From: an uncultured Acidobacteriota bacterium
GTDB taxonomy: Bacteria > Acidobacteriota > Thermoanaerobaculia > Multivoradales > UBA5704
Assembly (NCBI GenBank): GCA_963752235.1
Contig: CAVVXL010000021.1
Span: 9,133-73,132 of the forward strand
Length of the DNA stretch: 64,000 nucleotides
Reading direction: 5' to 3'
The notes beneath the pieces were generated by a model that saw nothing but the letters and a program-made list of their open reading frames with translations, did not search any database and had not been told where the DNA came from. Each line of letters opens with the position of its first letter. Position 1 is the first letter of the stretch. The translations under genes were made by a program, and so were the position numbers. Positions 1 to 22,680 of the stretch are shown piece by piece.

Positions 1-1129
1 GCTGCGGCCGGTGGTCGCTCCCCCGCCGCTCGGTCTGCCGGGAGAGCTGCGAGAGGGCGATCACCGGGATCTCGAGCTCCTTGGCGAGCTGCTTCAGGCC
101 GCGGCTGATGGCGGCGATCTCGAGGTTGCGGTTCTCGTAGCGCCCGCCTGCCTGCATCAGCTGGAGATAGTCGAGGACGATCAGCGCCAGCCCCCGCTCC
201 GCCTTCAGCCGCCGCGCCTTCGAGGCGACCTCGAGCAGGGTGGGGTTCGGCGAGTCGTCGATGTAGAGCGGCGCGTCGCCGATCGCGCGCACGGTCTGGA
301 TGATCCGCGTCCACTCCTTCTGCGACACCCGGTTCGAGCGCAGGCGCGAGAAGGAGATGTCCGCCTCCGAGCAGAGGATGCGCAGCGCCAGCTCCTGCTG
401 GCTCATCTCGAGCGAGAAGATCCCCACCGTCTTGCGCTCGCGGATCGTCACGTGCTGGCAGACGTTGAGCGCGAAGCTGGTCTTCCCCATGCCGGGACGG
501 CCGGCGATGATCACCAGGTTCCCCTTGTTCAGCCCCTGGCTCGTGCGGTCGAAGTCGACGAAGCCGGTCGGCACCCCGGTCAGCATGGTCCCCGGGCGCT
601 CCTCGAGCTCCTCGAGGGTCGCGTGGAGGACGTTCGACAGCTGCGCGAAACCGCGCTGGATCGCCTCCTCGCCGAGGCCGAGGATCGCCTGCTCGGCCCG
701 TCCCAGCGCCTCCTTCGCCTCGAGGCCGCCGTCCAGGCAGTTCCGGATGATCTGCCCGGAGAGCTGGATCAGCCGCCGGCGCACCGAGCGCTCCTTGACG
801 ATCTCGACGTAGGCGTCGATCCGCCCGATGTCCGGCAGGTCGAGGTCGAGCCCGGTCAGGTAGGCGAGGCCGCCGATCATCACCAGCTGGCTGCGCTGCT
901 CGAGGCGCGCCTGGAGGGTGCGCAGGTCGATCTCCACCTGCTCCTCCTGGAGGTCGAGCATCGCCTGGTAGAGGAGCTGGTGGCGCTCCGAGTAGAAGTC
1001 CTCCGCCCGCAGCCGCCCCGAGATCGTAGGCAGGATCGACGGGTCGAGCAGCACCCCGCCGAGCACCGCGCGCTCCGACTCCTCGCTGTGCGGCAGCGCC
1101 TTCTGTTGTTGGGGGAGGACGTCGATCAT
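1..1129 (-). CDS. dnaB: replicative DNA helicase DnaB (partial, C-terminus lies beyond window start)
   Basis: Minus-strand translation from ATG at 1129 reads MIDVLPQQQKALPHSEESERAVLGGVLLDPSILPTISGRLRAEDFYSERHQLLYQAM (DnaB N-terminal domain). Walker A LVIIAGRPGMGK lies at ~490-530. ORF-track 11..1840(+) is its antisense shadow. Confidence 0.9.
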   Translation of the reverse strand, partial: MIDVLPQQQKALPHSEESERAVLGGVLLDPSILPTISGRLRAEDFYSERHQLLYQAMLDLQEEQVEIDLRTLQARLEQRSQLVMIGGLAYLTGLDLDLPDIGRIDAYVEIVKERSVRRRLIQLSGQIIRNCLDGGLEAKEALGRAEQAILGLGEEAIQRGFAQLSNVLHATLEELEERPGTMLTGVPTGFVDFDRTSQGLNKGNLVIIAGRPGMGKTSFALNVCQHVTIRERKTVGIFSLEMSQQELALRILCSEADISFSRLRSNRVSQKEWTRIIQTVRAIGDAPLYIDDSPNPTLLEVASKARRLKAERGLALIVLDYLQLMQAGGRYENRNLEIAAISRGLKQLAKELEIPVIALSQLSRQTERRGSDHRPQ

Positions 1130-1220
1130 CGGGGGATTCGGAAAGATCTGCAGGATATCAGGGGGGCGTCACCCCCATTCTGCCGCGAGGACGGGAGACG
1201 GCGCAAGCGGTCGGGCTCAA

Positions 1221-1403
1221 CGCGAGCCCGACAGGGCGGCATTCCTGTAGCCCAGGGTGTCAACCCTGGGAATTCGGCGTACCCCGCCGCCCTTATCTCC
1301 CGAGGCCTACCCATCGAGATCGCGGCGAAATACCCGCTCGGCCCTGCGGCCGCCCCAGGGTTGACACCCTGGGCTACAGGAATGCCGCCCTACGGGCTCG
1401 CGA
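1221..1403. repeat. MITE-like inverted-repeat element A, upstream of dnaB
   Basis: Perfect 35-bp IR ggcggcattcctgtagcccagggtgtcaaccctggg (1235-1270) and its reverse complement (1355-1389), ~84-bp spacer. Imperfect extension to ~50-bp arms. Each arm holds an internal palindrome cccaggg/ccctggg. Confidence 0.7.
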
Positions 1404-1849
1404 GGCGGGGTTTGTGGACGCCGTGCCCGCTGTTCCGTACCTTGACGGGCTCCCGACCGCTTGGTTTCCCTCCCGGACCGTCCGTTTCGGCGGCTCGCCG
1501 ACGAGAAAACGGCCCGCTCGACCTTCGCGCGCCTCTCCGCCAGGAAAATTTCTCTCCTCGCAAGCGACGCGCGGCTGCTTCCTCGGCTGAAACGGCTCTC
1601 CGCCGGCTTCCCTGGCTCCCGTTGCGCCTTCCGCCGGTCCGACCGAGACCTCCTCTCTCCTCCCCGGAGGTTCCGCGCTTCCCTTCACCGCCTCGCGCCC
1701 TCGTTTCGAGCGCCGAACCGTCGCGCGAAATGGAAAGCGCCCAGGTTTCAAGTCAGAGGGGACGCTCGCCAAGCCAGCCACCGCTTCGCGCAAGGGAAGT
1801 TTGCCGCCGCACAAGCTTTGCGGGCTCACTGCTAGACTGATGAGCAGCC

Positions 1850-1925
1850 GTTTTTCAGGAGAAACCCCTTGGCGGATGACAGCTTCGACGTCTTCCTGAG
1901 CCACAACAGCCGCGAGAAACCGGCC
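1850..1925 (+). pseudogene. truncated third copy of the TIR-STAND gene 5' end (promoter-proximal region plus first ~17 codons)
   Basis: tttttcaggag..ccttggcggatgacagcttcgacgtcttcctgagccacaacagccgcgagaaaccggcc matches the upstream region and N-terminus (MADDSFDVFLSHNSREKPA) of the genes at 2269 and 4883. Similarity ends abruptly at ~1925 where IR element B begins. Confidence 0.75.
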
Positions 1926-1929
1926 GAGT

Positions 1930-2206
1930 CCCCGCGTGGAATCCGCCGTCCTGCCCTGCGAGGAGACGTCCCGCCGTCCCCGTGGCCTGCAGAGGTTCTC
2001 GTTATGCGCTGGGAACGTCTCTACGGGACGGTTGCCGATCTTGGAGCGACGGCGCGTTTCGGATGGGATCGGTCCCCATGCGGAACCGTCGGAGTCACGA
2101 CAACGTGCCCGTAGAGACGCTCCCAGCGATGAACGAGAACGTGACGCAGGCCACGGGGACGGCGGGACGTCTCTTCGCAGGGCAGGACGCACCGGGATTC
2201 GCGGGG
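1930..2206. repeat. MITE-like inverted-repeat element B (~100-bp imperfect arms, ~79-bp spacer)
   Basis: 1930-2028 versus the reverse complement of 2108-2206, ~88% identical by eye (cccgtagagacg...gcaggccacggggacggcgggacgtctc). Mirrored peptides appear in ORF-track 1936..2214(+) and 2021..2263(-). Confidence 0.75.
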
Positions 2207-2268
2207 CGCCCTGATCTCTGCACCCTCAGGGCTACGCTCAACCGCACCCCTTTTCAGGAGCAACGCCC

Positions 2269-4758
2269 TTGGCGAATAAGACCTTCGACGTCTTCCTGAG
2301 CCACAACAGCCGCGACAAACCCGCGGTGATCGAGATCGCCGAGGCGCTACGGGACCAGCGCCGCCTCAAGGTCTGGCTCGACGCCTGGTGCCTTACTCCG
2401 GGGAGGCCCTGGCAGGAGGAGATCGAAGCCGCCATCCTCACCGTCCGCTCCGCGGCCGTCCTTGTCGGCAAGGACGGGTTGGGCCCCTGGGAGATTCCGG
2501 AGATGCGGGTCTGTCTGGAGCAGGCGATCCACCACCAACTCCCCGTAATCCCCGTCCTGCTTCCGGGCCTTGAGAAGCCCCCTGAGCTCCCTCCATTCCT
2601 GTCGCGGTATACCTGGGTGGACCTCCGCGACGGTCTCACCGAGGGCGGGCTCGATCGCCTCGTTTGGGGGATCAAGAGCAAGAAGCCATCCCCCAAGAAG
2701 ACGGCTCAACGCCAGCCCTCCAAGCCCACCCCCCCTCGCCGGCACAACCTCCCCTTCCCCAGCCTGGGAGACCTCTTCAAAGGCCGCGACGCCGAGCTTC
2801 GCACCTTGAGCGACGGTCCGGCGACCGCGATCACCCAGGCGCAGACGCTCTTTGGGCTGGGCGGCATCGGTAAGACCCGGCTGGCCGTCGAGCACGCCTG
2901 GCGCTCCGGGGACCGGTACGACAAGGCGCTCTTCGTGGTGGCGGAATCGCCGCAGGCGCTCCGCTCCAACCTGGCGCGGCTCTCTCGGCCCAGCCTGCTC
3001 GATCTGCCGCAAATCGAGACGGCCTCCGAAGAGAGCAACGTGGAGGCCGTCCTCGGGTGGTTGCAGCAAAACAACCGGTGGTTGGTGATCCTCGACAACG
3101 TGGACACCCAGGAGGCGGAAAGGGCGGTCCTGGAGATTCTTCCGTCCCTAGCCAGGGGGCGCGTCCTCATCACCTCCCGGCTCCGGGACTGGCCGGCGAG
3201 CGTCCGGAGACAGTCGCTCGAGCTCCTCGGCCCGGAAGAAGCCCAGCGTTTCCTCCTCGAGCGCACGGCCAGCGACCGCGATCGAGCGCAGGCCGATCCG
3301 GAAACTGCCCGCCGGCTGGCCGAGACGCTGGGATACCTTCCTCTCGCGCTGGAACAGGCGTCGGCGTACATCGCCCATCACCAGATGAGCCTCTCCGCCT
3401 ATCTGGAGGAGTGGCAACGCGAGCGGGAGAAGGTCCTGCGCTGGTACAGAGCAGACGTCATGCAATATCCCGCCTCCCTTGCCGTGACCTGGCAAAAGAC
3501 GTTTCAGCAGCTCAGCCCCACGGCCGCGACCATCCTCCGCCTGTCCGCCTACCTCGCGCCCGAGCCCATCCCGGTGGAGATGTTCGAGCAGGAGGCGTCG
3601 ATCGTCGAGGAGTCCGTCCAGGCCTTTTGCGAAGAAACCGGGGTTGAGGCCGGCGATTCATCGATTCAGTCCGCCCTCGCCGATCTCGCCGCCTTCTCGA
3701 TGGCGACCCGCGCCGGGGCGAGCTTCGTGGTCCACCGGATGGTGCAGGAGGTTCTGAGATCCAGCCTTCCCGAAGGGTACCGGCGAGATTGGATCGAGCG
3801 CTCCCTGCGGTTGGTCAACGATTACTCGCCAGACACTCCAAGTGATGTGCGGACTTGGCCGGTGTGGGATCCGTTGCGGCCACATGCGGCGGTCGTCGTT
3901 CAACATGCCGATGCCGCCGCGATCTTTATACCGACAGCTCGCCTCATTGGCAGTTTGTCTCTTCTACTCAAGACAAAATCCTTGTATGACGAAGCTGAGC
4001 GTTTGGTTCGACGCGCGCTCGAGATCAATGAGAGCGCTCTGGGACCTACTCATTCAGAGGTAGCGATCTGCCTCAACAACCTGGCCCTGTTGCTTCACGA
4101 CACCAACTGCCTAGCCGAAGCCGAACCTTTGATGCGGCGCGCTCTCCAGATCGACCAACAAGCTCTCGGTGAAATTCACCCAAACATCGCAAGAGATCTC
4201 AACAACCTGGCTTCGTTGCTTCAGGCCACACACCGCCTGGCCGAAGCCGAACCCTTGATGCGGCGCGCTCTACAGACTTTCGAACAAGTCTTGGGAGAAG
4301 ATCACCCAAGAGTCGCCATAGTTCTCAACAACCTGGCTCAGTTGCTTCAGGGCACCAACCACCTGGCCGAAGCTGAACCCTTGATGCGGCGCGCTCTCCA
4401 GATCGACCAACGAGCCTTCGGTGAAAATCACCCAAGCGTCGCAAGGGATCTCAGCAACCTGGCCCGGTTGCTTCAGGACACCAACCGCCTGGCCGAAGCC
4501 GAGCCCTTGATGTGGCGCGCTCTCCAGATCGACCAACAAGCCCTTGGTAAAAATCACCCAAACGTCGCCATCCGACTCAATAACCTGGCCCGGTTGCTTC
4601 AGGCCACCAACCGCTTGGCCGAAGCCGAGCCCTTGATGCGGCGCGCTCTGGCCGTCTTTGAACAGAGCCTGGGGCCAGAACATCCGAACACCGGGATCGT
4701 GCGAGAGAACCTGGACGCTCTGCTGGCGGAGATCGCCGGGGGATCCTCGCAGGGATGA
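2269..4758 (+). CDS. TIR-NB-ARC-TPR STAND NTPase (bacterial NLR-like), paralog 1
   Basis: N-terminal TIR motif FDVFLSHNSRDK. NB-ARC P-loop GLGGIGKTRLA, Walker-B-like WLVILDNVD, ITSR, GLPLAL motif (LGYLPLAL). C-terminal ~6x 42-aa TPR_10/12-like repeats (NNLAxLLQxTNRLAEAEPLMRRAL). TTG start 8 nt after aggag. Confidence 0.9.
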   Translation: MANKTFDVFLSHNSRDKPAVIEIAEALRDQRRLKVWLDAWCLTPGRPWQEEIEAAILTVRSAAVLVGKDGLGPWEIPEMRVCLEQAIHHQLPVIPVLLPGLEKPPELPPFLSRYTWVDLRDGLTEGGLDRLVWGIKSKKPSPKKTAQRQPSKPTPPRRHNLPFPSLGDLFKGRDAELRTLSDGPATAITQAQTLFGLGGIGKTRLAVEHAWRSGDRYDKALFVVAESPQALRSNLARLSRPSLLDLPQIETASEESNVEAVLGWLQQNNRWLVILDNVDTQEAERAVLEILPSLARGRVLITSRLRDWPASVRRQSLELLGPEEAQRFLLERTASDRDRAQADPETARRLAETLGYLPLALEQASAYIAHHQMSLSAYLEEWQREREKVLRWYRADVMQYPASLAVTWQKTFQQLSPTAATILRLSAYLAPEPIPVEMFEQEASIVEESVQAFCEETGVEAGDSSIQSALADLAAFSMATRAGASFVVHRMVQEVLRSSLPEGYRRDWIERSLRLVNDYSPDTPSDVRTWPVWDPLRPHAAVVVQHADAAAIFIPTARLIGSLSLLLKTKSLYDEAERLVRRALEINESALGPTHSEVAICLNNLALLLHDTNCLAEAEPLMRRALQIDQQALGEIHPNIARDLNNLASLLQATHRLAEAEPLMRRALQTFEQVLGEDHPRVAIVLNNLAQLLQGTNHLAEAEPLMRRALQIDQRAFGENHPSVARDLSNLARLLQDTNRLAEAEPLMWRALQIDQQALGKNHPNVAIRLNNLARLLQATNRLAEAEPLMRRALAVFEQSLGPEHPNTGIVRENLDALLAEIAGGSSQG
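3934..4740 (+). repeat. 126-bp in-frame tandem repeats encoding the TPR array of paralog 1
   Basis: Repeated ctcaacaacctggc...gccgaagccgaacccttgatgcggcgcgctct units. Confidence 0.8.
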
Positions 4759-4882
4759 GAGGCGCTCCCCGCCGTCTCCTTGTGCAGTGCAGCCCCCACC
4801 GAAACAGAATCCCTCCGGCAGACACGACCTTCTGGACGCTACACTCTAGCCTGCAGCCCAGCCTTTTTCAGGAGGAGCCCCC

Positions 4883-7519
4883 TTGGCGGATGACATCTTC
4901 GACGTCTTCCTGAGCCACAACAGCCGCGACAAGCCCGCCGTGATCCGGATCGCGGAGGCGTTGCGCGACCGGCGCGGCCTCAAGGTGTGGCTCGACGTCT
5001 GGGAGCTGCCGCCCGGCCGCCCGTGGCAGGACGCGCTCGAGACGATCCTGCGCACGGTCCGCTCGGCGGCGATCCTGGTCGGGCAGGACGGGCTGGGGCC
5101 GTGGGAGATCCCCGAGATGCGGGCCGCGCTGAACGAGATGGTCCATAGGCAGCTCCCGGTGATCCCCGTCCTCCTACCGGGCGCTCCCCGCTCGCCGGAG
5201 CTCCCCCTCTTCCTGGCGCAGAACACCTGGGTGGACCTCCGCGACGGCCTGACCGAGGAGGGGCTCGACCGGCTGCAATGGGGGATCACCGGCAGGAAGC
5301 CGCCGCTGCGGCCGGTGCCGTACCGCGCGGTCGCGCCGCGCCTCCACAACCTTCCCTTCTCCTCGCTCGGCGACCTCCTCAAGGGGCGCGACGACGAGTT
5401 GCGGAGCCTCGACGCGGGACAGACGACGGCGATCACCCAGGCGCAGACGATCTCGGGGCTCGGCGGCATTGGCAAGACGCGGCTCGCCGTCGAGTACGCC
5501 TGGCGCTCGGGGGAGCGCTACGACGCGGCGTTCTTCGTGGTCGCCGAGTCGCCGCAGGCGCTGCGCGCCAACCTCGCGCACCTCGGGCGGCCGGAGCTGC
5601 TCAATCTTCCGGAGCACGGGGCGGCGGCGGCCGAGCAGAGCCTCGCGGCCGTGCTGCGCTGGCTGCGCGAGCACGACCGCTGGCTGCTGATCCTCGACAA
5701 CGTCGACACCCCGGAGGCGCAGGCCGCAGTGATGGAGATCCTGCCGTCGCTCTCGACCGGCCGCGTCCTCATCACCTCGCGCATCCGCGATTGGGCGCCG
5801 GTCGTCGACCGCCAGCTCCTCGAGCGGCTCGGGCCGGACGAGGCGCGGCGCTATCTCCTCGACCGCACCGCCGGCGACCGCATCCCCGCCGCCGACGACC
5901 GCGAGCTGGCCGGTCGGCTCGCCGACAAGCTCGGCGGCCTGCCGCTCGCCCTCGCCCAGGCCGCCGCCTACATCGCCCACTACCAGACGAGCTTCGCCGA
6001 CTACCTCCAGACCTGGCAGAAGGAGCGCGACGAAGTCCTCACCTGGCACGACCCCGCCGTGATGCAGTACCCCGCCTCGGTCGCCGCGACCTGGCAGACG
6101 ACCTTCCGCCAGCTCTGTCCGATGGCGACCGCCGTGCTCCGCCTCGCCGCCTTCCTGGCGCTCGATCCCATCCCGGTCGAGATCTTCGAGCAGGGGGAAG
6201 CGCTGGTCTCCGAGGCGGTGGGGCTGCTCGGCGAGGAGGCCTCGGCGACCGGCGGGCCGGCGGGCGAGACGACCCTGAAGGATGCGATCGCCAGCCTCGC
6301 CGCCTGTTCGCTGGTGACGCGGAAGGGGACGAGCTTCACGGTGCACCGCATGGTGCAGGAGGTGCTGCGGGCGGGGATTCCGCAGCGGCGGCGGCGCGAC
6401 TGGATCGAGCGCTCGCTGCGCCTGGTCGTCGCCTTCTGCCCCGCGGAGTCGGACGACGTCCGCACCTGGCAGGTCTGGGACCTCCTGCGCCCGCACGCGA
6501 CGCGGATCCTCGGCTTCGCGGACCGCGAGGGGATCCATCATCCCACCTCGGAGCTGATGAGCCGCCTCGCCCTCCTCTACTTCAGCAAGGGGCTCTCCGG
6601 CGAGGCGGAGCCGTTGATGCGGCGGGCGCTCGAGATCGAGGAGAGCTGCTTCGGCCCGCAGGACCCCAACGTCGCCAGCCGCCTCAACAACCTCGCGCTC
6701 CTCCTCCAGGACACCAACCGCCTCGCCGAAGCCGAGCCCCTGCTGCGCCGTGCCCTGCGCATCGACGAGCGCGCCTACGGCCCGCGCCACCCCGACGTCG
6801 CCCGCGACCTCAACAACCTCGCCCAGCTCCTCCAGGACACCGGCCGCCCCGCCGACGCCGAGCCGCTGCTGCGCCGCGCTCTGGAGATCGACGAGCGCGC
6901 CTTCGGACCGAGCCACCCCAACGTCGCCATCCGCCTCAACCACCTCGCCCGCCTCCTCCAGGCGACCCACCGTCTCGCCGACGCCGAGCCGCTGATCCGG
7001 CGGGCCCTGGAGATCGACGAGGCCGCCTTCGGCCCGCAGCACCCCGAAATCGCCATCGACCTCAACAACCTCGCCCAGCTCCTCCAGGCCACCGGCCGCC
7101 TCGCCGAGGCCGAGCCCCTCCTGCAACGGGCCCTCGCGATCGACGAGGCCGCCTGCGGCCCGCAGCACCCGAACGTCGCCATCCGTCTCAACAACCTCGC
7201 CCGCCTGCTCAGCGCCGCCCACCGCCTCGCCGACGCCGAGCCCCTGATGCGCCGCGCCCTCGACATCGACGAGCACACCCTCGGCGCCCACCATCCCGAC
7301 GTCGCCCTCGTGCTCAACAACCTCGCGCTGCTGCTGGAGGAAACCCAGCGTCCGCACGAAGCGGAGCCGCTGATGCGGCGGGCGGTCGAGATCTTCGAGC
7401 AGAGCCTGGGGGTGGATCATCCGAAGACGCGAACGGCGCGGAAGAATCTGACGGCGCTGTGCAAGGCGAATGTCTGCGCGGAGGCGGGGGTGGCCGTCCT
7501 GCCGAATGAAACCTATTGA
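4883..7519 (+). CDS. TIR-NB-ARC-TPR STAND NTPase (bacterial NLR-like), paralog 2
   Basis: MADDIFDVFLSHNSRDKPAV TIR. GLGGIGKTRLAVEYAW P-loop. LLILDNVD. LGGLPLALAQAAAYIA GLPL motif. ~7 TPR repeats. TTG start after aggagg. Same architecture as 2269..4758. Confidence 0.9.
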   Translation: MADDIFDVFLSHNSRDKPAVIRIAEALRDRRGLKVWLDVWELPPGRPWQDALETILRTVRSAAILVGQDGLGPWEIPEMRAALNEMVHRQLPVIPVLLPGAPRSPELPLFLAQNTWVDLRDGLTEEGLDRLQWGITGRKPPLRPVPYRAVAPRLHNLPFSSLGDLLKGRDDELRSLDAGQTTAITQAQTISGLGGIGKTRLAVEYAWRSGERYDAAFFVVAESPQALRANLAHLGRPELLNLPEHGAAAAEQSLAAVLRWLREHDRWLLILDNVDTPEAQAAVMEILPSLSTGRVLITSRIRDWAPVVDRQLLERLGPDEARRYLLDRTAGDRIPAADDRELAGRLADKLGGLPLALAQAAAYIAHYQTSFADYLQTWQKERDEVLTWHDPAVMQYPASVAATWQTTFRQLCPMATAVLRLAAFLALDPIPVEIFEQGEALVSEAVGLLGEEASATGGPAGETTLKDAIASLAACSLVTRKGTSFTVHRMVQEVLRAGIPQRRRRDWIERSLRLVVAFCPAESDDVRTWQVWDLLRPHATRILGFADREGIHHPTSELMSRLALLYFSKGLSGEAEPLMRRALEIEESCFGPQDPNVASRLNNLALLLQDTNRLAEAEPLLRRALRIDERAYGPRHPDVARDLNNLAQLLQDTGRPADAEPLLRRALEIDERAFGPSHPNVAIRLNHLARLLQATHRLADAEPLIRRALEIDEAAFGPQHPEIAIDLNNLAQLLQATGRLAEAEPLLQRALAIDEAACGPQHPNVAIRLNNLARLLSAAHRLADAEPLMRRALDIDEHTLGAHHPDVALVLNNLALLLEETQRPHEAEPLMRRAVEIFEQSLGVDHPKTRTARKNLTALCKANVCAEAGVAVLPNETY
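6542..7450 (+). repeat. 126-bp in-frame tandem repeats encoding the TPR array of paralog 2
   Basis: Near-identical units encoding LNNLAxLLQxTxRLAxAEPLxRRALxIDExAxGPxHPxVA. Confidence 0.8.
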
Positions 7520-7544
7520 ACCGCGGCGTTCCAGAATCAAAAAG

Positions 7545-7625
7545 GCAGACGGGGGCGTCGAGACGATCGTTCATCCCCCGTCTGCAAGAGATGGCCGGAA
7601 CCGGGGTGTCGCTCCCGGTTCCTTG
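7545..7625. terminator. two GC-rich stem-loops between convergent genes (TIR-STAND paralog 2 and crp-like)
   Basis: cagacggggg-N19-cccccgtctg, and ggaaccggg-N8-cccggttcc. Confidence 0.4.
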
Positions 7626-7680
7626 GGGCGACTGTAAAACCCTTGCGAAACGCGAGCGGTGCGAAATCGCACGTTTGGCG

Positions 7681-8277
7681 TCAAGCCAAGGCGAGCGCCA
7701 AGGGGCCCTCCCGCTCCTCCTCTTCCACCGCCGGTCGCACGCAATACCGCTCGCCGCGGCCGGTGCGCACCGCGAGGAGCAATCCCTTCCGGCAAAGACG
7801 GCTGAGCAATCGCGAGACCGTCGTCCGCGTGGCGCCTACGGCCGTGGCGAGCTGGGCTTGCGTGATCGGCACGTCGATCAGCAATCCCTCCCGCGTCGCG
7901 CGGCCGAATTGATCACCGAGCAGCGACAGAATCCCGAACAGTCGCTGCTCGATGTGCGGCCGCGCCTGCATGGCGGCCCAGGCTTCCATCGAGCGCAGAC
8001 GGTTGCGCAACCGATCGGCGAAGCCCGCCCTCTGCACGGCTTCGGCCCAGGGCTCGACTCGCACCGTCGCCGCGGTCTGCGCGGAGAGCTCGACGCAGCC
8101 GGATGCCTCGGGGTGGCCGGCGAGGATCTGGCCGGTGCCGTAGAGGCCGAGGAGGACCTCGGCGCCGTCCGCGTGGAGCATGGTGAGGGCCACCACGCCG
8201 TCGACGACTTCGAGCACGTTGTCGGGATCGAGCACGATCCTCTCCCCCATGCGGTACCAACGCTGGAGCACGCTCAT
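7681..8277 (-). CDS. Crp/Fnr-family transcriptional regulator
   Basis: cNMP-binding-like N-terminal region. C-terminal HTH ITQAQLATAVGATRTTVSRLLSRLCRKGLL. Starts 8 bp downstream of the TBDR stop on the same strand. Confidence 0.8.
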   Translation of the reverse strand: MSVLQRWYRMGERIVLDPDNVLEVVDGVVALTMLHADGAEVLLGLYGTGQILAGHPEASGCVELSAQTAATVRVEPWAEAVQRAGFADRLRNRLRSMEAWAAMQARPHIEQRLFGILSLLGDQFGRATREGLLIDVPITQAQLATAVGATRTTVSRLLSRLCRKGLLLAVRTGRGERYCVRPAVEEEEREGPLALALA

Positions 8278-8287
8278 CGGCTGCCCT

Positions 8288-10713
8288 TCAGAAGACGTAC
8301 CGGATACGGCCGGCGACGGTACGCGGCGGGATGACGTGGGTGCCGCCGAAGACGGACTGGAAGTTGTAGAGCCCCTTCTCGTCGAAGAGGTTCAACACGT
8401 CGAGCTGGATTTCGAAGGGAAAGCCGTACTGCTTCAGGCGCCCGCCGAGCGAGAGGTTCCAGACGGTGCGCGGGCGGATGCGCTGCGGGGTCTCGCCGAA
8501 GCGGATGTAGGGCGCGGCGTAGGTGGTGTCGGGGCTGGCGAGGACGTCCGCGAGGGTGCCGGCGTCGGTGACCAGGCCGGAGTCGTAGCGCTGGGTGACG
8601 CCGATCCAGGCGCCGGTCTTGGGGATGTCCCAGAAGATACCGAGCTGTTCCTGGAGGTCCTGATCGTGATCGATCACGAAGGAGCCGCCGGCGAGGGTAT
8701 CGAGCGCTCCGGCGTCGAGGAAGAGGCCGCCTACGAAGGGGTTCTGGTAGAGCGCCTTGACGTGGCCGAGCGAGAGATAGCCGCGCAGGCCGTTCCACGG
8801 GCCGCCGTCGAGCCGGGCATTCCAGCCGCTCAGATCCGCCCCCTTGAAGTTGAGCGGGAAGACGATGCCGGTGTTGAAGAACTGGTCCTGGTCGGCGGCG
8901 TTCACCACCGTCCGCTTCCACCAGGAGAGGTCGACGCGCAGGGCACGGCCGATCCCCTGCTGGAGGCCGGCGTTGTAGACCTTGTGGCGCTCGGAGACGT
9001 TGAACAGCTGACCCGAGCCGAGCTGGCTGTTCCCCTGGAGCGCCGGCGGCACCAGCGCCGCGGCGGCGGCGGACGAGGAGAGGAGGATGTTCTCGTACTC
9101 GGGGGTGATGAACATCCGGTCGTAGGAGGCGCGGAAGACGGTGTTGGTGGCGGGCAGGAACCAGGCGACGCCGACGCGCGGCTGGAGCAGGCTCTCGGTC
9201 TCGAACAGGCTATTGTGGTCGTAGCGCAGGCCGGCGTTGATCGTCAGGTTCCCCAGCCTTGCGGTGTCCTGAGCGTAACCGGCGGCGTACTGGCCGGTGC
9301 GGCCGGAGTTGAAATTGAACAGCGCGCCGCCGCGCGACAGATCGTAGGGGGCCAAATTGGGGTTGTAATCGTCAGCGGAAGGGTCGTTGAGCGTGGGATC
9401 GGTGATCCCGAAATGGAACGACTCCTGGATCGGGAAGCGCTTCGCCTGGAGGCCGACCTTGAGCTCGTTGGCCCCCACCAGCTTCGAAAGCGAAAGGTTA
9501 CCCCCCTGGTTGGCGAGCGAGCGGTCCTGCGCGGCGGTGACCGGGGTGTCGCCAGGCGAGCCGTCGAGGCGCAGGCTGTTGCGGCGGCTGTAGACCTGGC
9601 CGTCGAGCACCCAGCCGGCGGCGGCCACGTGCTGGTAGCCGAGGTTGAGGTTCCAGTCCTCCGAGAAGACCCGCTGGTTCTGCCCGTCGGCCTCCTGCGA
9701 GGGAAGGTTGGTGACGTCGCGGTCGGTCCGGCCGCCGCTGCCGGTGAGGCGGAAGGAGTCGGACTCCCCGGCCGCCAGCGCGTCGTAGCGCGCGAACAGG
9801 CGTCGGGTGTTCCCCTGGTTGTGGAAGTTGTCGAAGGAGACGGGGTCGAGGAAGCGGTCGGATTTCGAGGCGTCGAGGTCGAGGAAGAGGCCGGAGCGCG
9901 GGACCTCCCCAGCCGGCGGCGGCGGACGCCTTCCATCGTCGAGAAGCGGCCGGCGCCGAGGCCGACGTCGCCGTGGAGGCCGTCGTGGCCCAGGGCGGAA
10001 CGGGTGGTGAGGTTGATGACGCCGTTCGCCTTCTCGCCGAACTCGGCGGCGATGCCGCCGGTGACGATCTCGATCCCCTCGGCGATGCCGGGGTCGAGCG
10101 AATTCGAGAAGGAGATCCCCATCTGGTCGCCGATCGGCTGGCCGTCGATCACCAGGAGCTGCTGCGAGTGGCCGCCCTGGAAGTGGTAGCGGCCGTTCTC
10201 GTCCTGGCTGAAGCCGGGCGCGGAGAGGACGATCGCCTCGAAGGCGCGCGAGGCGACCGGCGCGGCGAAGCGGCGGACCAGCGACTTGTCGATGTCGGTG
10301 TGAGTCGAGGAGTCGTCCGTCTCGACCTCGACGTTCTCCTTCTCGGCGGTGACGGTCGTCGAGCCCGAGAACTGCGCGGTGAGCTGGATCTTCTGATCGA
10401 CCGGCACGGCGCCGCGCACCTGGACGTCGGCGTGGAAATCGGCGAACCCTTCGAGCGAAGCCCGCAGATGATACGGATTGTCGGGGACGTTGTAGAAGAT
10501 GAAGCCGCCGTCAGGGCCCGAGACGACCTGCTGCGACGAGCCGGCGAGGTCGTTTGCGAGCTCCACGCTCACGCCGGGGAGCGGCTCGTTGCCGGGTCCC
10601 ACGACCTTGCCGCGGACCTGTCCGGCCCAGGCGGCGGCGCCGAGAAGGAAAAGAAAGAAAAAGAGAGAGGTAGGGACAGCGGCAATCGCCGCGCGAACGG
10701 TTTTCGGTTCCAC
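8288..10713 (-). pseudogene. TonB-dependent receptor (signal peptide, CarboxypepD_reg-like domain, plug, barrel), frameshifted
   Basis: N-terminal ORF 9244..10713 (signal peptide, GVSVELANDLAGSSQQVVSGPDGGFIFYNVP, plug IDGQPIGDQMG) and C-terminal ORF 8288..9628 (barrel ending RIRYVF) lie in different frames. The frame switches near 9905-9935 inside a gccgccgccgccgg tract. Either a pseudogene or an indel error. Confidence 0.75.
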
Positions 10714-14758: not shown

Positions 14759-16482
14759 TCACACCTCGCTCAGGTACTGGTGGATGAACGAGATGGTGAT
14801 CGACCCCTCGCCGACGCCGGAGGCGACGCGCTTGATCGAGCCGTGGCGGACGTCGCCGGCGACGAAGACTCCCGGCACGCTGGTCTCCAGCAGATAGGGA
14901 TCGCGGTCGGGCTTCCAGCCAGCGGGGCGCTTGCCGTCCGGCATCAGGTCGGGGCCGGAGAGGATGAACCCCTTGTCGTCGCGCGCCACCACCCCTTCGA
15001 GCCAGCGGGTGCGCGGCTGGGCGCCGATGAAGATGAACAGCGAGCGGGCGGGGTGGCGGGTGGTCTCCCCCGTCGCGGAATTGTGGACGTCGATCGCCTC
15101 CAGATGGTCGTCGCCGTGGGCCTCGGCGACGTTCGAAAAGTTCCAGACCTCGATGTTCGAGGTGGCGCCGATCTGGTCGATCAGGTACTGCGACATCGAC
15201 TTGTTGAGCGACTCGCCGCGCACCAGCATCACCACCCGCCGCGCGTACTTGGCGAAGAACATCGCCGCCTGTCCGCCTGAGTTGGCGCCGCCGACCACGA
15301 AGACGTCCTCGTCGCCGCACGACATCGCCTCGGTCATCGCGGCGCCGTAGTAGACGCCGGCGCCGGTCAGCTTCTCGACGCCGGGGACGTCGAGCTTGCG
15401 GTAGGAGACGCCGGTGGCGATCAGCAGGGCGTGGCAGCTCACCTCGCGGTCGTCGGCGAGGGTGAGGATGCGGTAGGCGTCCTCGATCCGCAGCCGCTTC
15501 GCCTCCTGCGGCGCCAGGATCTCGACGCCGAAGCGCTGCGCCTGGGTGACGGCGCGGCGGGTGAGGTCGGCGCCGGAGAGCCCGGACGGAAAGCCGAGGT
15601 AGTTCTCGATCCGCGAGCTGGTCCCCGCCTGGCCGCCGGGGGCGTTCCCCTCGATCATCAGCGTGCGCAGCCCCTCCGAGGCGCCGTAGACCGCCGCCGC
15701 GAGCCCCGACGGGCCGCCGCCGACGATCGCCAGGTCGTAGAACGGCCGCTCCGCCTGGGTGCGCAGCCCCACCTTCGCCGCCAGCTCGCCGCGCGTGGGC
15801 TTCACCAGATGCGAGCCGTCGGCGAGCACGACGAGCGGCAGGATCGTCCTTGGGTCGGCAGGGGGGTCGGCGGGGGGATCGACCGGCTCGCCGCCCGGCT
15901 TTCTCGGGCCATCTCGGCCTGGAGCGCCGCCAGCAGCTCGATCCCCTCGGGGTTCTCCTCGACGTCGAGCCAGCGGTAGGGGACCTGGTTGCGGGCCAGG
16001 AAGTCGCGGATCTGGAAGGCGTCCGGCGACCAGCGGTGGCCGAGCACGCGCACCCCTTCGAAGGGCGGCCGGAAGGCGGCCTGCCAGTCGGCGAGCAGGT
16101 CGTCGAGCACCGGATAGAGCAGCTGCTCGGGGGGATTCCACGGCTTCATCAGGTAGTAGTCGACGCGCGCCGTGTTGATGGCGCGGATGGCGGCGTCGGT
16201 GTCGGCGTAGGCGGTGAGCAGCACCCGCTTGGCGGCGGGAAAGAGCGGGATCGCCGCCTCCAGGAACTCGACGCCGGTCATCTGCGGCATCCGCTGGTCG
16301 ACCAGGAAGAGGGCGACCGGCGTGGCGCGCACCTTGAGCGCCTCGAGCGTCTCCAGGGCCTGCGGCCCCGAGCTCGCCCGCATCACCCGGTAGGGCTCGC
16401 CATACTGGCGCCGCAGATCGCGGTCCACCGCGCGCAGCACCTCGGGGTCGTCGTCGATCGCGAACAGGACGGGCTTGGCCAT
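14759..16482 (-). pseudogene. response-regulator receiver domain fused to thioredoxin-fold domain and thioredoxin-reductase-like FAD/NAD(P) oxidoreductase, frameshifted
   Basis: REC MAKPVLFAIDDDPEVLRAV..LFLVDQRMPQMTG (ORF 15802..16518). TrxR-like YDLAIVGGGPSGLAAAVYGASEGL and FVVGGANSGGQAAMFFAKY (C-terminal part of ORF 14759..16528). The frames join within ~15840-15900 at C6/G6 homopolymers. Confidence 0.75.
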
Positions 16483-16489
16483 GGGGAGA

Positions 16490-16600
16490 GTAGACCACGG
16501 ACGAACACGGACTTCCACAGACCTTCACGGACAGGAAAGAGGAAACTTCGCCGCTGCCTCATCTCTGTCCCTGTTCGTCCGTGGCGCCGTGTTTGTCCGT
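16490..16600. promoter_or_regulatory. repeat/IR motifs in the divergent promoter region (REC-TrxR gene versus tolC-like operon)
   Basis: cacggac occurs three times (ccacggacgaacacggacttccacagaccttcacggac). It has an inverted partner tgttcgtccgtgg ... gtttgtccgtg. Confidence 0.4.
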
Positions 16601-16738
16601 GATCCTCCCCAACCCCAACCCTGGCACCGCCTTCGCTTACAATTTTCGACCGATGCGGAGCGCGGGGCGGAGCCAGGCGGAAGGGCCGCTGCCGATCCAA
16701 GGGAACGCAGGTCCTTCGACGAAACGGATCAGGCAGTC

Positions 16739-18286
16739 TTGAGACAAAAAATTGGAACTTTTTTCAGCGCTCTGGCCCTTCTCGGGCAGGGCGCGGCGTG
16801 GGCCCAGCCGCCGGCTCCGGTGAGCCCGGCCGCCGGCCCCAAGACGGTGCTGCTGTCGATCGACGACGCGCTGCGGATCGGCTCGGGGGAGAGCGAGGCG
16901 GTGTGGGTGGCCGAGGCGGGGGTGATGCGGGCGGTGGGGACCGAGATGACCACCCGCAGCACCCTCTTCCCGCAGCTCTCGGGGAGCGGCGCCTACATCC
17001 GGACGCTGCGCAGCCAGTTCGGCAACATCAAGATCCCGGCGGGCCCCGGCGGCACGACCGAGACGCTCCCCTTCGGCCAGAAGAACCAGTACTCGCTGGG
17101 GCTCAACTTCTCGCAGCTCGTCTTCGACGGCCAGACCCTGCAGCGCACCAAGGCGTCCGAGTCGCGGCGGCGCTCGGCGGAGATCAACGCCGACTCGGCG
17201 CGGGCCGAGGCGCTGCTCGACGTCACCGGCGCCTACTACGACGCCCTGCTCGGCGAGCGGCTGGTGACGATCGCCGAGGCGTCGCTCGCGCAGCAGGACG
17301 AGATCCTGCGCCAGACGACGGTGGCCGAGCAGGTAGGGGACAAGTCGGAGTTCGAGCTGCTCCAGGCGCGCGTTTCGCGCGACAACCAGCTGCCGCAGGT
17401 CCTGCAGAGCCGCAACCAGCGCCGGGTCTCCTATCTGCGCCTGAAGCAGCTCCTCAACCTGCCGCTCGCCGATGAGATCCAACTCACCTCGCCGCTCGAG
17501 GAGCTGCCGGCCCGCTTCGCGGCGCCCGCCGACCCCTCGACCGACGCGCGGGCGCCGGTGCGCCAGGCGCAGGAGGAGGTGGCCGCGAACCAGTCGCTGC
17601 TGACCGCCGCCAAAGGGGAGCGCTGGCCCACGGTCTCGCTCACCTCCGCCTACAACCCGGTGGCTTACCCGAGCGGCCTCCCCACCTACGGCGACTTCCT
17701 CACCAACTGGACGGTGACGCTGAGCGTCTCGGTGCCGATCCTCAACGGCGGGCGCCTGGCCGGCGACGAGCTGGTGGCGCGCGGCAACCTGTCGACGGCG
17801 CGGGCGCAGCTCCAGCAGACCCGCAAGGCGGCGGAGCTCGACGTCGAGACCTCGCGGCTCAACCTCGCCAACGCCGAGGCGATCCAGAAGAGCAACGAGA
17901 GCACCGTCGAGTCGGCGCGCCGCGGCTACGAGATCGCCCAGCTGCGCTACCGCGAGGGACTGGGGAGCCAGATCGAGCTGCAGAACGCCCGCCTCCTCTT
18001 CGAGCAGGCCGAGGTCAACCGGGCGCAGGCGCTGCGCGACGTCCAGGTGGCGCGCGCCCGGCTCGCCCTGATCCGCGACCTGCCGGTCACCGCCGGCGGC
18101 AGCGGGTCGAACGGCAGCGCCCTGACGCAGAACGGCACCAACGGCTTCGGAAACTCGAACGGCGTCGCCGCCGGCTCTTCGCAGCCATCGCAGCCATCGC
18201 AGACGTCGCAGCCGCAGACCGGCCAGCCATCCAGCTCGATCCCCGGCACGACGGGGACCACCATCCCCGGAGTCTCCCCTCCATGA
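16739..18286 (+). CDS. TolC-like outer-membrane efflux protein (OEP family)
   Basis: Signal peptide KIGTFFSALALLGQGAAWAQ. Two-repeat OEP architecture. Gly/Ser/Gln-rich C-terminal tail. TTG start inferred. Confidence 0.8.
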   Translation: MRQKIGTFFSALALLGQGAAWAQPPAPVSPAAGPKTVLLSIDDALRIGSGESEAVWVAEAGVMRAVGTEMTTRSTLFPQLSGSGAYIRTLRSQFGNIKIPAGPGGTTETLPFGQKNQYSLGLNFSQLVFDGQTLQRTKASESRRRSAEINADSARAEALLDVTGAYYDALLGERLVTIAEASLAQQDEILRQTTVAEQVGDKSEFELLQARVSRDNQLPQVLQSRNQRRVSYLRLKQLLNLPLADEIQLTSPLEELPARFAAPADPSTDARAPVRQAQEEVAANQSLLTAAKGERWPTVSLTSAYNPVAYPSGLPTYGDFLTNWTVTLSVSVPILNGGRLAGDELVARGNLSTARAQLQQTRKAAELDVETSRLNLANAEAIQKSNESTVESARRGYEIAQLRYREGLGSQIELQNARLLFEQAEVNRAQALRDVQVARARLALIRDLPVTAGGSGSNGSALTQNGTNGFGNSNGVAAGSSQPSQPSQTSQPQTGQPSSSIPGTTGTTIPGVSPP

Positions 18287-19446
18287 GGTGCCCACGCTTG
18301 AATCTCCGGTCCCTGATTCCGCTCCTCGCCCTTCTCCTGCTCTCCGCGGCCGGCTGCAAAAAAGGCGGCGCCGACGCGGCCGGTCCGACCGGAAAGCCCG
18401 GAAAGCCCGCTCCCCCGCCGACGATGGCGCTCGGCCCCGAGGACACGGCGGTGGTGACGCCAGGGCCGGTCGAGAGCGGCCCGGCCCTCACCGGCACGCT
18501 CTCGGCGCAGCGGCAGGCGGCGATCCGGGCGCAGATCGCGGGGTCGGTGCTCTCCGTGACCGCCGAGCCCGGGCAGGCGGTGAAGCGCGGGCAGACCCTC
18601 GCCCGCCTCGACTCGAGCGCGCTGACCGACGCCTACAACTCGGCGCGTTCCATCGCCACCAGCGCCCGCAGTGCCCTGGCGGTCGCCGAGCGCGAGGCGA
18701 CGCGCCAGGAGACCCTGGTCAAGGCCGGGGCGGTGGCGCAGAGGAACGTCGAGACGGCGCAGCAGTCGGTGGTGCAGGCCCGGGCCACTCTCTCCCAGGC
18801 GCAGGCGCAGATCGCCAGCGCCGAAAAGCAGCTCGCCTACACCACCGTCACCGCCCCCTTCTCGGGGGTGGTCAGCGAGCGGCCGGTGTCGGCCGGCGAC
18901 GTGGTGCAGCCGGGCACCAGCCTCTACACGGTGGTCGACCCGTCGAGCCTCCAGCTCGAGGCGGCGATCCCCGCCGAGCAGCTCGCCGCCCTCAAGGTGG
19001 GCTCGCCGGTCCGCTTCACCATTACCGGCTACGGCGACCGCACTTTCAAAGGGTCGATCACCCGCATCAACCCGAGCGCCGATCCCACCACCCGCCAGGT
19101 GCGGGTCTACGCCGAGGTCCCCAACCCGGGCGACCTGGTGGCCGGCCTCTACGCCGAGGGGCGGGTGGAGAGCGAGTCGCGCCACGGCCTCACCCTGCCG
19201 GCGGCGGCGATCGACCGCCGGATGGCGAAGCCGGCGGTGCTCGTGGTGCGCGACGGCAAGGTGGCGCGGGTCGACGTCGAGCTCGGGCTCGCCGACGAGA
19301 AGGCGCAGCGGGTCGAGGTGCTGCACGGGGTCGCGGCCGGCGACGTGGTCCTCCTCGGCGCCGCGCAGGAGATCGCGCCGGGGACGCCGGTGACCCTCGC
19401 GCCGTCGGTGCAGCAGGCGGCGGAGAGGCTGGCGCAGACGCTATGA
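18283..19446 (+). CDS. RND efflux membrane fusion protein (periplasmic adaptor, lipoprotein)
   Basis: Lipobox LLLLSAAGC. HlyD/AcrA-like TVTAPFSGVVSERPVSAGDVVQPGTSLYTVVD. Overlaps the tolC-like stop (ATGA). Confidence 0.85.
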   Translation: MRCPRLNLRSLIPLLALLLLSAAGCKKGGADAAGPTGKPGKPAPPPTMALGPEDTAVVTPGPVESGPALTGTLSAQRQAAIRAQIAGSVLSVTAEPGQAVKRGQTLARLDSSALTDAYNSARSIATSARSALAVAEREATRQETLVKAGAVAQRNVETAQQSVVQARATLSQAQAQIASAEKQLAYTTVTAPFSGVVSERPVSAGDVVQPGTSLYTVVDPSSLQLEAAIPAEQLAALKVGSPVRFTITGYGDRTFKGSITRINPSADPTTRQVRVYAEVPNPGDLVAGLYAEGRVESESRHGLTLPAAAIDRRMAKPAVLVVRDGKVARVDVELGLADEKAQRVEVLHGVAAGDVVLLGAAQEIAPGTPVTLAPSVQQAAERLAQTL

Positions 19447-22400: not shown

Positions 22401-22680
22401 CCGCGTGCGCCTGCGCCCCATCCTGATGACCACCGTCGCCCTGATCGCCGGCATGATCCCCGTCGCCATGGGGCTGGGAGAAGGCGCCGACTTCCGCGCT
22501 CCCCTGGGACGCGCGGTGATCGGCGGCACCATCACCTCCACCTTCCTCACCCTGCTGGTGATCCCGACGATCTACGAGATCCTGGTCGAGACGCGGGAGA
22601 AGGTGCTGGGGTGGTTCGGGCGGGGGAAGAAGGCGAAGAAGCACGTCGAGCCCAAGGCGGAGCCGGTGGGAGCGCCCTGA
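19443..22680 (+). pseudogene. RND (HAE1/AcrB-family) efflux pump with three frame disruptions
   Basis: MTISDFAIKRPIVTVVVMLALVIFGIFALFQ ... C-terminal ILLMGIVAKNAILLIDFA. The reading frame breaks near 21305-21315 (IKM/VPKKQRDIS), near 21680-21690 (DWIDP/LGKTRD at a ccc run) and across a GGC-rich ~85-bp stretch at 21766-21885. Confidence 0.8.

Follow-up and report, generated by a model that had tools for sequence, protein, structure and literature searches.

Tandem TIR-NB-ARC-TPR genes of an uncultured Acidobacteriota bacterium: candidate NLR-like immune receptors in an array with signs of birth-and-death evolution

Proteins that combine a TIR domain with a STAND-type nucleotide-binding module are known from several kinds of organisms. 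A bacterial architecture of TIR, AP-ATPase and TPR was described by Kaur et al. 2020 (PMC7159879), a TIR-NLR encoded by a P4 satellite of E. coli (Rst_TIR-NLR) defends against phage (PMC9122126), and the TPR sensors of Avs proteins each bind one phage protein, after which oligomers (effector-activating tetramers) are formed (PMC13581612). In maize, cell death caused by the TIR-NBARC-TPR protein ZmTNP-IIa requires both the catalytic Glu of the TIR domain and the P-loop; bacterial and fungal TIR-NB-TPR relatives were noted in the same work, where it is the nucleotide-binding domain, and not the TIR or TPR parts, that makes the plant and bacterial proteins similar (PMC9806590). Here we describe two adjacent genes of this architecture, gene 1 and gene 2, and the relic of a further copy, in a 64,000-nt stretch of contig CAVVXL010000021.1 from an uncultured Acidobacteriota bacterium (the whole stretch is called the window below). 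The two genes probably encode independent single-gene cytoplasmic immune receptors of the NLR-like STAND (NB-ARC/AP-ATPase) kind, acting by abortive infection through a TIR NADase, within an array that appears to evolve by birth and death.

The preliminary description of the locus held that both genes share a TIR, NB-ARC and TPR architecture, and this was borne out by significant matches in both proteins, all above the Pfam cutoffs: TIR_2 (PF13676) scored 73.8 bits in gene 1 and 80.0 in gene 2 (cutoff 28), NB-ARC (PF00931) 38.2 and 33.7 bits (cutoff 23.5), and DUF7779 and TPR_10/TPR_12 were also over their cutoffs. Both genes begin with TTG, nine nt downstream of AGGAG, and their products are 64% identical across 810 aa. 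The motifs FDVFLSH (aa 6-12, strand beta-A of the TIR domain), GPWEIPEM, GLGGIGKT, WL(V/L)ILDNVD, VLITSR, G(Y/G)LPLAL and VHRMVQ occur in both proteins, including the three quoted earlier (FDVFLSH, GLGGIGKT and G(Y/G)LPLAL), and the STAND switch motifs follow each other in order: Walker A, Walker B, the sensor/RNBS-B motif TSR, GLPL and the MHD-type His (VHRMVQ). W74 and E78 of the TIR domain align with the WTNYE segment of AbTir (WxxxE context; 7uwg/8g83), which we take to hold the catalytic Glu208 (E208). In an alignment of 73 homologs E78, the GKT of the P-loop and the Walker B Asp (D272) are invariant, W74 is nearly so and the other STAND motifs are invariant or nearly invariant, which confirms the conserved catalytic Glu that the preliminary description had proposed to look for. 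On these motifs genes 1 and 2 are classed as STAND NTPases of the NB-ARC/AP-ATPase clade. The sensor is an array of regular kinesin-light-chain-type 42-aa units, six in gene 1 and seven in gene 2, with a repeat-to-repeat identity of 78-83% at the nucleotide level; the variation clusters at a few unit positions, and the number of units changes among orthologs (six in gene 1 of the window, five in that of the related contig L001). Long open reading frames (ORFs) in other frames and strands (e.g. 5174-7540 on the minus and 5278-7509 on the plus strand) were dismissed as high-GC artefacts overlapping gene 2.

A profile built from the alignment of the 73 homologs was matched against solved structures. 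It matched kinesin light chain (KLC) TPRs (E = 4e-54) and was colinear with residues 10-393 of the plant TIR-type NLR (TNL) ROQ1 across TIR and NB-ARC (E = 1.4e-16); AbTir and, through NB-ARC, AfsR (E = 4e-10) were also matched. A confident AlphaFold2 model of the gene 2 protein (pLDDT 88.6, pTM 0.70) retrieved with Foldseek the core of the RPP1 tetramer (7dfv/7crc), Apaf-1 (3sfz/1z6t) and NRC2, all with probability 1.00, as well as KLC TPRs (4y6c and 4y6w). The model thus has the predicted fold of a nucleotide-binding domain, helical domain 1 and winged-helix domain (NBD-HD1-WHD), like Apaf-1 and plant NLRs.

The family to which the two proteins belong is large. A search with the full-length protein gave 2,362 matches at E<=1e-10 among 8,000 candidates scored, the named ones being mostly Thermoanaerobaculia, and the part consisting of TIR, NB-ARC and the winged helix (WH) matched 4,409 cluster representatives (50% identity) at E<=1e-30; a metagenome scan with the NB-ARC/WH region of gene 1 gave one relative, at 41% identity. 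Of the best matches to the TIR+NB-ARC+WH part roughly one in three included the TIR domain, and the alternatives found N-terminal to the same NB-ARC/WH module were kinase, ParA-like, KAP, nSTAND1, alpha/beta-hydrolase, SEFIR and DUF4062 domains. Such swapping of N-terminal effectors is typical of NLR-like conflict proteins. Homologs are commonly solitary among unrelated (metabolic) genes and have no conserved partner gene, which fits a self-contained system. Distant homologs also occur on plasmids: the one on pPAES01 has a restriction endonuclease, a recombinase and a diversity-generating retroelement as neighbours, and that of a Streptomyces plasmid lies next to a NACHT gene. With thousands of homologs, and with both the AP-ATPase/FxsT work of Kaur et al. 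2020 and papers on plant TNPs already in print, the architecture is neither rare nor unnoticed in bacteria, where its tandems had been called largely uncharacterised, and the locus is a further example of it and not a new kind of system.

The nearest relatives of the window (G+C about 70%) are metagenome-assembled genomes of Thermoanaerobaculia (Acidobacteriota), and their contigs were compared with the array (Table 1). In L001 (694 kb, with a dnaB of 97% nucleotide identity) the order is dnaB, an FA_hydroxylase gene, gene 1, gene 2, crp and then the genes found downstream in the window. In L002 the hairpin repeat IR B is present, gene 1 is broken up as three ORFs and gene 2 is intact. The order in L085 is dnaB, FA_hydroxylase, the conserved upstream region U, a gene head, IR B, a gene of a third type and again IR B, and in L084 head, IR B, head, IR B and gene 1. 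In L086 a head runs directly into a WH/TPR remnant (408 aa) and is followed by an intact gene of the third type (P0055) and a gene 1 ortholog with an insertion sequence (IS) in its TPR region (5953-7396, with a DDE_Tnp_1 transposase of 389 aa); this contig stops before the position of gene 2. P0055 lies immediately before IR B and gene 1, with a stop codon that overlaps IR B at its left end. The turnover that the preliminary description suspected is thus seen among the relatives as an intact paralog at the position of the window's truncated copy, as a pseudogenised, an IS-interrupted and a chimeric gene 1, and as duplicated relics of head and IR B. For 37 representatives of related species the flank upstream of dnaB was 4 kb or longer, and a TIR-type gene was present at the dnaB site in 4/37 (three TIR-STAND, one TIR-only). 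A single copy occupies the site in L016, and the other occupants are a PIN toxin, NTP_transf_8, a YhgA-like transposase and unrelated enzymes, so that occupancy of this site varies between species. Copy content also varies across the relatives, unlike that of an invariant housekeeping region. By these comparisons the array locus appears to be accessory and variable, with no recognisable defence island around it, and to evolve by birth and death, with further paralogs held by closely related lineages.

Three orthology groups were distinguished by NB-ARC/WH identity. Members of the gene 1 type are 89-92% identical (L001, L084 and L086) and those of the gene 2 type 90-93%; the third type (P0055 in L086 and P0051 in L085) shares 88% within the group, 74-77% with gene 1 and 63-66% with gene 2. 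Gene 2 of the window and its orthologs in L001 and L002 are 88-92% identical. Between genes 1 and 2 the identity of the NB-ARC/WH region is 63-64%, and their 64% aa identity and dS (synonymous divergence) of about 1.0 point to old paralogs. A recent tandem duplication was rejected, each gene having closer orthologs elsewhere (80% for P0038; 88% for P0002 and P0003). Amino-acid identity between genes 1 and 2 is higher in the TIR parts (70-91%) than in the remainder (63-64%), and for gene 1 orthologs it drops to 65-82% in the TIR part vs 89-92% in NB-ARC/WH. The dS of gene 1 is likewise 0.68 in the TIR and 0.60 in the TPR part vs 0.16-0.19 in NB-ARC/WH, which is better read as replacement of segments than as fast evolution. 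In L001 gene 1 is chimeric: its first ~240 nt are 95% identical to the adjacent gene 2, the identity has dropped to ~82% by nt 300-400, and beyond nt ~450 the gene is 91-98% identical to gene 1 of the window. We regard these mosaic TIR regions as signs of exchange between copies. The G+C content at third codon positions (GC3) is 0.77 in gene 1 and 0.95 in gene 2, with 0.87-0.97 in neighbouring core genes. This split extends to the groups, the gene 2 group being host-like (0.93-0.95) and the gene 1 and third-paralog groups lower (0.75-0.80, and 0.62-0.68 in their TPR parts); later acquisition or weak codon selection could lie behind the lower values.

The third copy in the window had been described as cut off after about 17 codons where IR B starts. 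The junction with IR B stands, but the homology to genes 1 and 2 runs to codon 19 (nt 1925). Positions 1816-1924 align to 2216-2324 and 4830-4938 with 74-75% identity, and the shared upstream regions reported earlier were confirmed as a leader of ~50 nt (GCTA...TTTTCAGGAG) common to all three copies. Region U and the head together (1466-1925) are orthologous to gene 1 of L001 at its 5' end and to the sequence that precedes this gene. Because the last ~12 nt before IR B align to the 3' end of P0055, the stump is best read, from these alignments, as a paralog with an internal deletion that begins at about codon 19 and ends a few codons short of the stop. A simple insertion of IR B as a miniature inverted-repeat transposable element (MITE) into the third copy was rejected, since IR B is followed by the leader and start of gene 1 and not by the remainder of an interrupted gene; it is further countered by L086, where IR B lies in the spacer directly after an intact paralog.

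The heads of the three copies share a 33-nt core (CTTCGACGTCTTCCTGAGCCACAACAGCCGCGA) at 1883-1915, 2283-2315 and 4897-4929, which encodes FDVFLSHNSRD and is identical at every synonymous site, whereas its surroundings are ~75% identical. These are three exact copies in 64 kb, with 0 expected (100 shuffles). The core is conserved in the L001 and L002 copies, apart from one substitution in the pseudogenised gene 1 of L002, and is decayed in the relic heads of L084 and L085 only; the relic heads have substitutions at residues invariant in intact genes and are therefore taken to be decaying.

IR B folds as a single hairpin (-224 kcal/mol, z = -13.8), with outer arms (1947-1990/2146-2189) that are 98% and inner arms that are 81% complementary, and is 94% conserved at the equivalent junction in L084, L085 and L086. 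In L001 arm remnants were found after the stop of gene 1 and within the 3' end of gene 2, and the first 45 nt of the spacer between the genes are a 91% match to the left arm. The corresponding spacer of the window (4759-4882) is by eye homologous to that of L001, while BLAST finds no IR B remnant in it. Sequences of the IR B type thus lie at junctions between units of the array. Since copies also occur at unrelated sites (L004, L023 and L087), IR B belongs to a dispersed repeat family. The IR B repeats and the 33-nt core may be recombination substrates. A doubtful extension of this idea, which we offer tentatively, is that head and IR B are not debris but form a recombination and/or regulatory device, in which the hairpin would mark the unit junctions and the 5' core serve as crossover point, driving exchange of TIR heads, chimeras and changes in copy number, with possible control of read-through into gene 1 by the hairpin. 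If true, bacteria would here have an equivalent of the dynamics of plant R-gene clusters.

Table 1. Coordinates of the array and its flanks in the window
Feature	Position	Strand	Basis or remark
dnaB	2-1168	minus	flank of array
Region U, conserved non-coding, upstream of array	1466..1815	+	alignment to L001 and L085
Relic of further paralog: ~53-nt leader with AGGAG, TTG at 1869, 19 codons (MADDSFDVFLSHNSREKPA), then ~12 nt like the 3' end of an intact paralog	1816..1925	+	
IR B, 287-nt near-perfect hairpin repeat at relic/gene 1 junction	1926..2212		arm complementarity, fold
Gene 1 leader, GCTAcgCT...TTTTCAGGAG, ribosome-binding site	2216..2268	+	alignment of three window heads and four L001/L002 heads
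Gene 1, TIR-NB-ARC-TPR protein, 829 aa	2269..4758	+	Pfam, motifs, TPR register
Gene 1 parts	TIR 2290-2661; NB-ARC 2845-3387; DUF7779/WH 3499-3771; six 42-aa TPR units 3985-4740	+	Pfam, TPR register
Gene 1 sites	catalytic Glu codon 2500-2502; Walker A GLGGIGKT aa 196-203	+	motifs
Gene 1-gene 2 spacer, 124 nt: degenerate IR B-like remnant, then gene 2 leader (4830-4882)	4759..4882	+	by eye, against L001 spacer
Gene 2, TIR-NB-ARC-TPR protein, 878 aa	4883..7519	+	Pfam, motifs, TPR register
Gene 2 parts	TIR 4904-5275; NB-ARC 5447-6001; DUF7779/WH 6101-6388; seven 42-aa TPR units 6596-7477	+	Pfam, TPR register
Gene 2 sites	catalytic Glu codon 5114-5116; Walker A aa 192-199	+	motifs
11-bp GC-rich inverted repeat in the convergent gene 2/crp interval	7545..7585		read directly from sequence; kept in L001
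crp-family regulator	7681-8277	minus	other flank of array

The reading of genes 1 and 2 as immune receptors, which we hold to be the probable one, draws on the conserved catalytic and switch residues, the kinship of the fold with TNLs and Apaf-1, the modular N-termini, the patchy distribution, the high turnover and the precedents cited above. By this reading the C-terminal superhelix of 42-aa KLC-type TPRs would bind a foreign protein, from a phage or mobile element, or a host protein altered by one. Binding would lift the autoinhibition of NB-ARC, with exchange of ADP for ATP and oligomerisation, by analogy with Apaf-1, plant TNL resistosomes and bacterial Avs. The oligomer would gather the N-terminal TIRs into composite active sites around E78, and hydrolysis of NAD+ would lead to growth arrest or death of the infected cell, as the conservation of the catalytic residue suggests. 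Genes 1 and 2, being old paralogs with different sensors, presumably respond to different triggers, and their conserved 5' (TIR) ends would recombine between copies and so give rise to the mosaic TIR regions and to the chimeric gene 1 of one relative. Several observations weigh against the reading. No recognised defence gene lies within 10 kb of the array in the window or in L001, and the adjacent genes are housekeeping genes (dnaB and crp) and a TonB-dependent receptor gene, not a classical defence island. A PADLOC search, which had been suggested earlier, yielded nothing but weak matches: with PADLOC-DB 2.0.0 these were confined to the first ~150 residues, i.e. the TIR (PDC-S66, bSEFIR, ThsB, SAVED-TIR and Aga_TIR; E from 4e-9 to 1e-2), and none of its AVAST or other STAND system models matched the NTPase or sensor. 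The order of gene 1 and gene 2 is kept in three lineages (the window, L001 and L002), with dnaB and crp synteny seen in L001. The dN/dS ratios of 0.18-0.34 (0.22 for crp and 0.20 for dnaB) give no sign of gene-wide positive selection; they reflect purifying selection, however, which counts in favour of the reading, both genes being therefore taken to be functional. The sequence would be compatible with depletion of NAD+ by the TIR and with synthesis of a signalling nucleotide alike.

Some of these observations would be expected if the proteins were STAND regulators or scaffolds for a cellular programme (stress-induced or kin-directed death, or signalling of the AfsR/MalT type) and not anti-phage. 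The kept pair order and synteny, a purifying selection equal in level to that on neighbouring genes and the missing defence island would all fit, as would the match of the NB-ARC profile to the transcriptional regulator AfsR and the link drawn by Kaur et al. between such proteins and social or multicellular conflict systems (PMC7159879). However, the proteins have no DNA-binding or other output domain, just a TIR with an intact catalytic Glu, their N-terminal modules are swappable, and the genes are missing at the dnaB site in most related species and have repeatedly been pseudogenised, truncated or hit by IS, which is typical of dispensable fast-turnover immune genes; a non-immune role is on balance unlikely. 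The TIRs might also be signal generators like Thoeris ThsB and plant TIRs, which would not deplete NAD+ themselves but produce a cyclic ADP-ribose (cADPR) isomer or a similar nucleotide and so switch on an effector whose gene lies elsewhere in the genome. Isomers of cADPR are made by AbTir, which among solved bacterial TIRs is the nearest in sequence, the weak PADLOC matches include models of the ThsB, SAVED-TIR and bSEFIR type, and many new TIR-signalling systems have been reported (10.64898/2025.12.03.692087). The same survey, on the other hand, sets apart Avs-type and stand-alone TIRs as probable NAD+-depleting effectors, and no linked candidate receptor or effector gene was found in the window, in L001 or at the loci of solitary homologs. 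The Thoeris arrangement, a TIR gene beside a ThsA-type effector gene, was not found either, the neighbours being those named above and the TIR being fused to its own STAND module. We consider signal generation quite unlikely.

That genes 1 and 2 form an obligate pair, like plant sensor/helper or otherwise paired NLRs, appears distinctly improbable. The genes are adjacent, co-oriented and 124 nt apart, in an order kept across the three lineages, and their TIR parts are held alike by exchange between copies. Against this, both have all catalytic and switch motifs, with no degenerate "sensor" copy; gene 2 of L002 is intact although its gene 1 is split; gene 1 carries an IS in L086 (where the contig ends before the position of gene 2); and solitary homologs are common, as is illustrated by the single copy of L016. 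Least probable by far is a role of the genes as FxsT in an FxSxx-COOH peptide maturation (Fxs) system. The NCBIfam FxsT model NF040586 scores 326.8 and 352.1 bits (cutoff 300), homologs are named FxsT ("FxSxx-COOH system TPR protein") or TPR proteins by the annotation pipeline PGAP, and an actinobacterial TIR and AP-ATPase gene follows peptide-processing systems of the FxSxx type (PMC7159879). Membership was rejected, as the partner genes are absent near the locus: within 10 kb of the array neither the window nor the syntenic L001 has a gene for a radical SAM/SPASM maturase, an HExxH peptidase, vWA-MoxR or an FxsA-like product, and no partner was seen among the larger ORFs sampled to 40 kb, where small FxsA-like ORFs were not specifically searched for. 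The fxsT-labelled homologs on pPAES01 and the Streptomyces plasmid also lack Fxs partners; the label therefore tracks the shared NB-ARC-TPR module and not the system, and for annotation this means that the PGAP name has been given to partner-less NLR-like genes.

Region U (~350 nt) is related to the sequence before the first TIR-STAND gene in L001 (9640-10000) and L085 with ~78% mean column identity, and contains blocks invariant in all three, e.g. AACGGCCC.CTCGACCTTCGCG, AAATTTCTC and TTTCAAG. A 37-column gap (~42 nt in the pairwise alignment of window and L001) excludes coding, so that the region is taken as non-coding. Its RNA fold was no better than that of shuffled sequences (z = +1.0). 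Region U is a possible, perhaps probable, promoter/operator region. A sigma-70 promoter scan of 1170-7700 found no promoter, and three terminator-like matches were not above chance. The inverted repeat between gene 2 and crp may be a bidirectional terminator for these convergent genes; it was not called by the consensus terminator scan because its loop is 19 nt.

No tRNA gene was found in window positions 1-30 kb and no integrase among the neighbours scanned, both sought as signs of an island. Between dnaB and the array L001 (8536-9600) and L085 (551-1585) have the FA_hydroxylase gene, which is absent from 1169-1465 of the window, where only another inverted repeat, IR A, is found. IR A (1225-1398; perfect arms of 38 nt) is an inverted pair of matches to Acido-Lenti-1 (RF01687) with 32.5 and 31.2 bits, below the gathering score of 37; this pair was all that Rfam matched in window positions 1-9000, with nothing for IR B or region U. 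Related copies in L001 (2448-2595), L056 (17425-17614) and L008 (7668-7718) mark IR A as a dispersed hairpin repeat, and no further copies of IR A or IR B were found within the window. The TonB-dependent receptor gene (CarboxypepD_reg, Plug and barrel; 8288-10713, minus strand) is recovered as two overlapping frames (8288-9628 and 9244-10713), whereas its L001 ortholog is a single gene of 805 aa; the split stems either from a frameshift that made the copy a pseudogene or from an error in assembly. In the RND efflux cluster (OEP, HlyD and ACR_tran; 16394-22680) ACR_tran was recovered only as a 275-aa C-terminal ORF at 21853-22680, so that a frameshift in the pump gene is possible. Another NLR-like gene, unrelated to the array, at 22720-26271 (minus strand) encodes 1183 aa with an unassigned N-terminal part of ~258 aa, NACHT (aa 259-426) and HEAT_2 repeats, lies in a stretch of lower GC (0.61-0.66) with strong GC and AT skew, and has a GC3 of 0.73; PADLOC gave a marginal mad8 match for this ORF and nothing else. 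Four very long ORFs (1555, 2380, 2207 and >2116 aa) with host-like GC3 at 39727-63999 (minus strand) could be a megasynthase or giant surface-protein cluster.

The main value added by the locus is the readable history of its array: the syntenic contigs preserve an unusually legible record of what appears to be birth and death in a bacterial NLR cluster, with an intact paralog, an internal deletion, a pseudogene, an IS, a chimera and mosaic TIRs. If the proposed mechanism is right, immunity of the TIR-NLR type would extend to Thermoanaerobaculia, a scarcely cultured lineage of Acidobacteriota abundant in soil, in which the family, at present recognised by no defence catalogue, appears heavily expanded.

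Compared with known bacterial systems, the genes resemble the actinobacterial FxsT-type TIR, AP-ATPase and TPR genes in their match to NF040586 and in the architecture of Kaur et al. 2020 but lack the Fxs and vWA-MoxR partners. With Rst_TIR-NLR they share the single-gene plan of a TIR effector and an NLR-like NTPase; that protein, unlike ours, sits in a satellite hotspot of Enterobacteria, and no match to a PADLOC model of its kind was obtained at E<=0.01, the presence of such a model in the library version being unverified. The Avs (AVAST) proteins (Avs1-5 and Avs7-21) are also single genes with an N-terminal effector, a STAND NTPase and a TPR-like sensor, but the NTPase here is of the NB-ARC/AP-ATPase type and the sensor has regular 42-aa KLC-type units where Avs proteins have irregular TPR-like lobes.

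Such regular units link the genes to the NB-ARC-TPR NLRs of fungi (e.g. Podospora anserina), in which NB-ARC is likewise followed by very regular 42-aa KLC-like TPRs whose number varies between orthologs. The N-terminal domains of the fungal proteins are usually HET, HeLo or other, and their "nearly identical" TPR arrays have a higher repeat-to-repeat identity than the arrays described here. Plant TNPs (TIR-NBARC-TPR, formerly XTNX), such as ZmTNP-IIa, have the identical three-part domain order. With the plant TNLs ROQ1 and RPP1 our genes share the colinear TIR and NB-ARC, the catalytic Glu, the P-loop, GLPL and the MHD-type His, whereas the sensor is a TPR array and not LRR plus C-JID, the identity in structural alignment is 14-15%, and the EDS1-type downstream pathway is absent in bacteria. 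They are the closest bacterial architectural counterpart of plant TNLs and TNPs that we found, and a candidate for studying resistosome-type activation of TIRs with a TPR sensor. Plant R-gene clusters evolve by unequal crossing-over and gene conversion and contain truncated copies, and the evolution of the tandem cluster described here resembles theirs.

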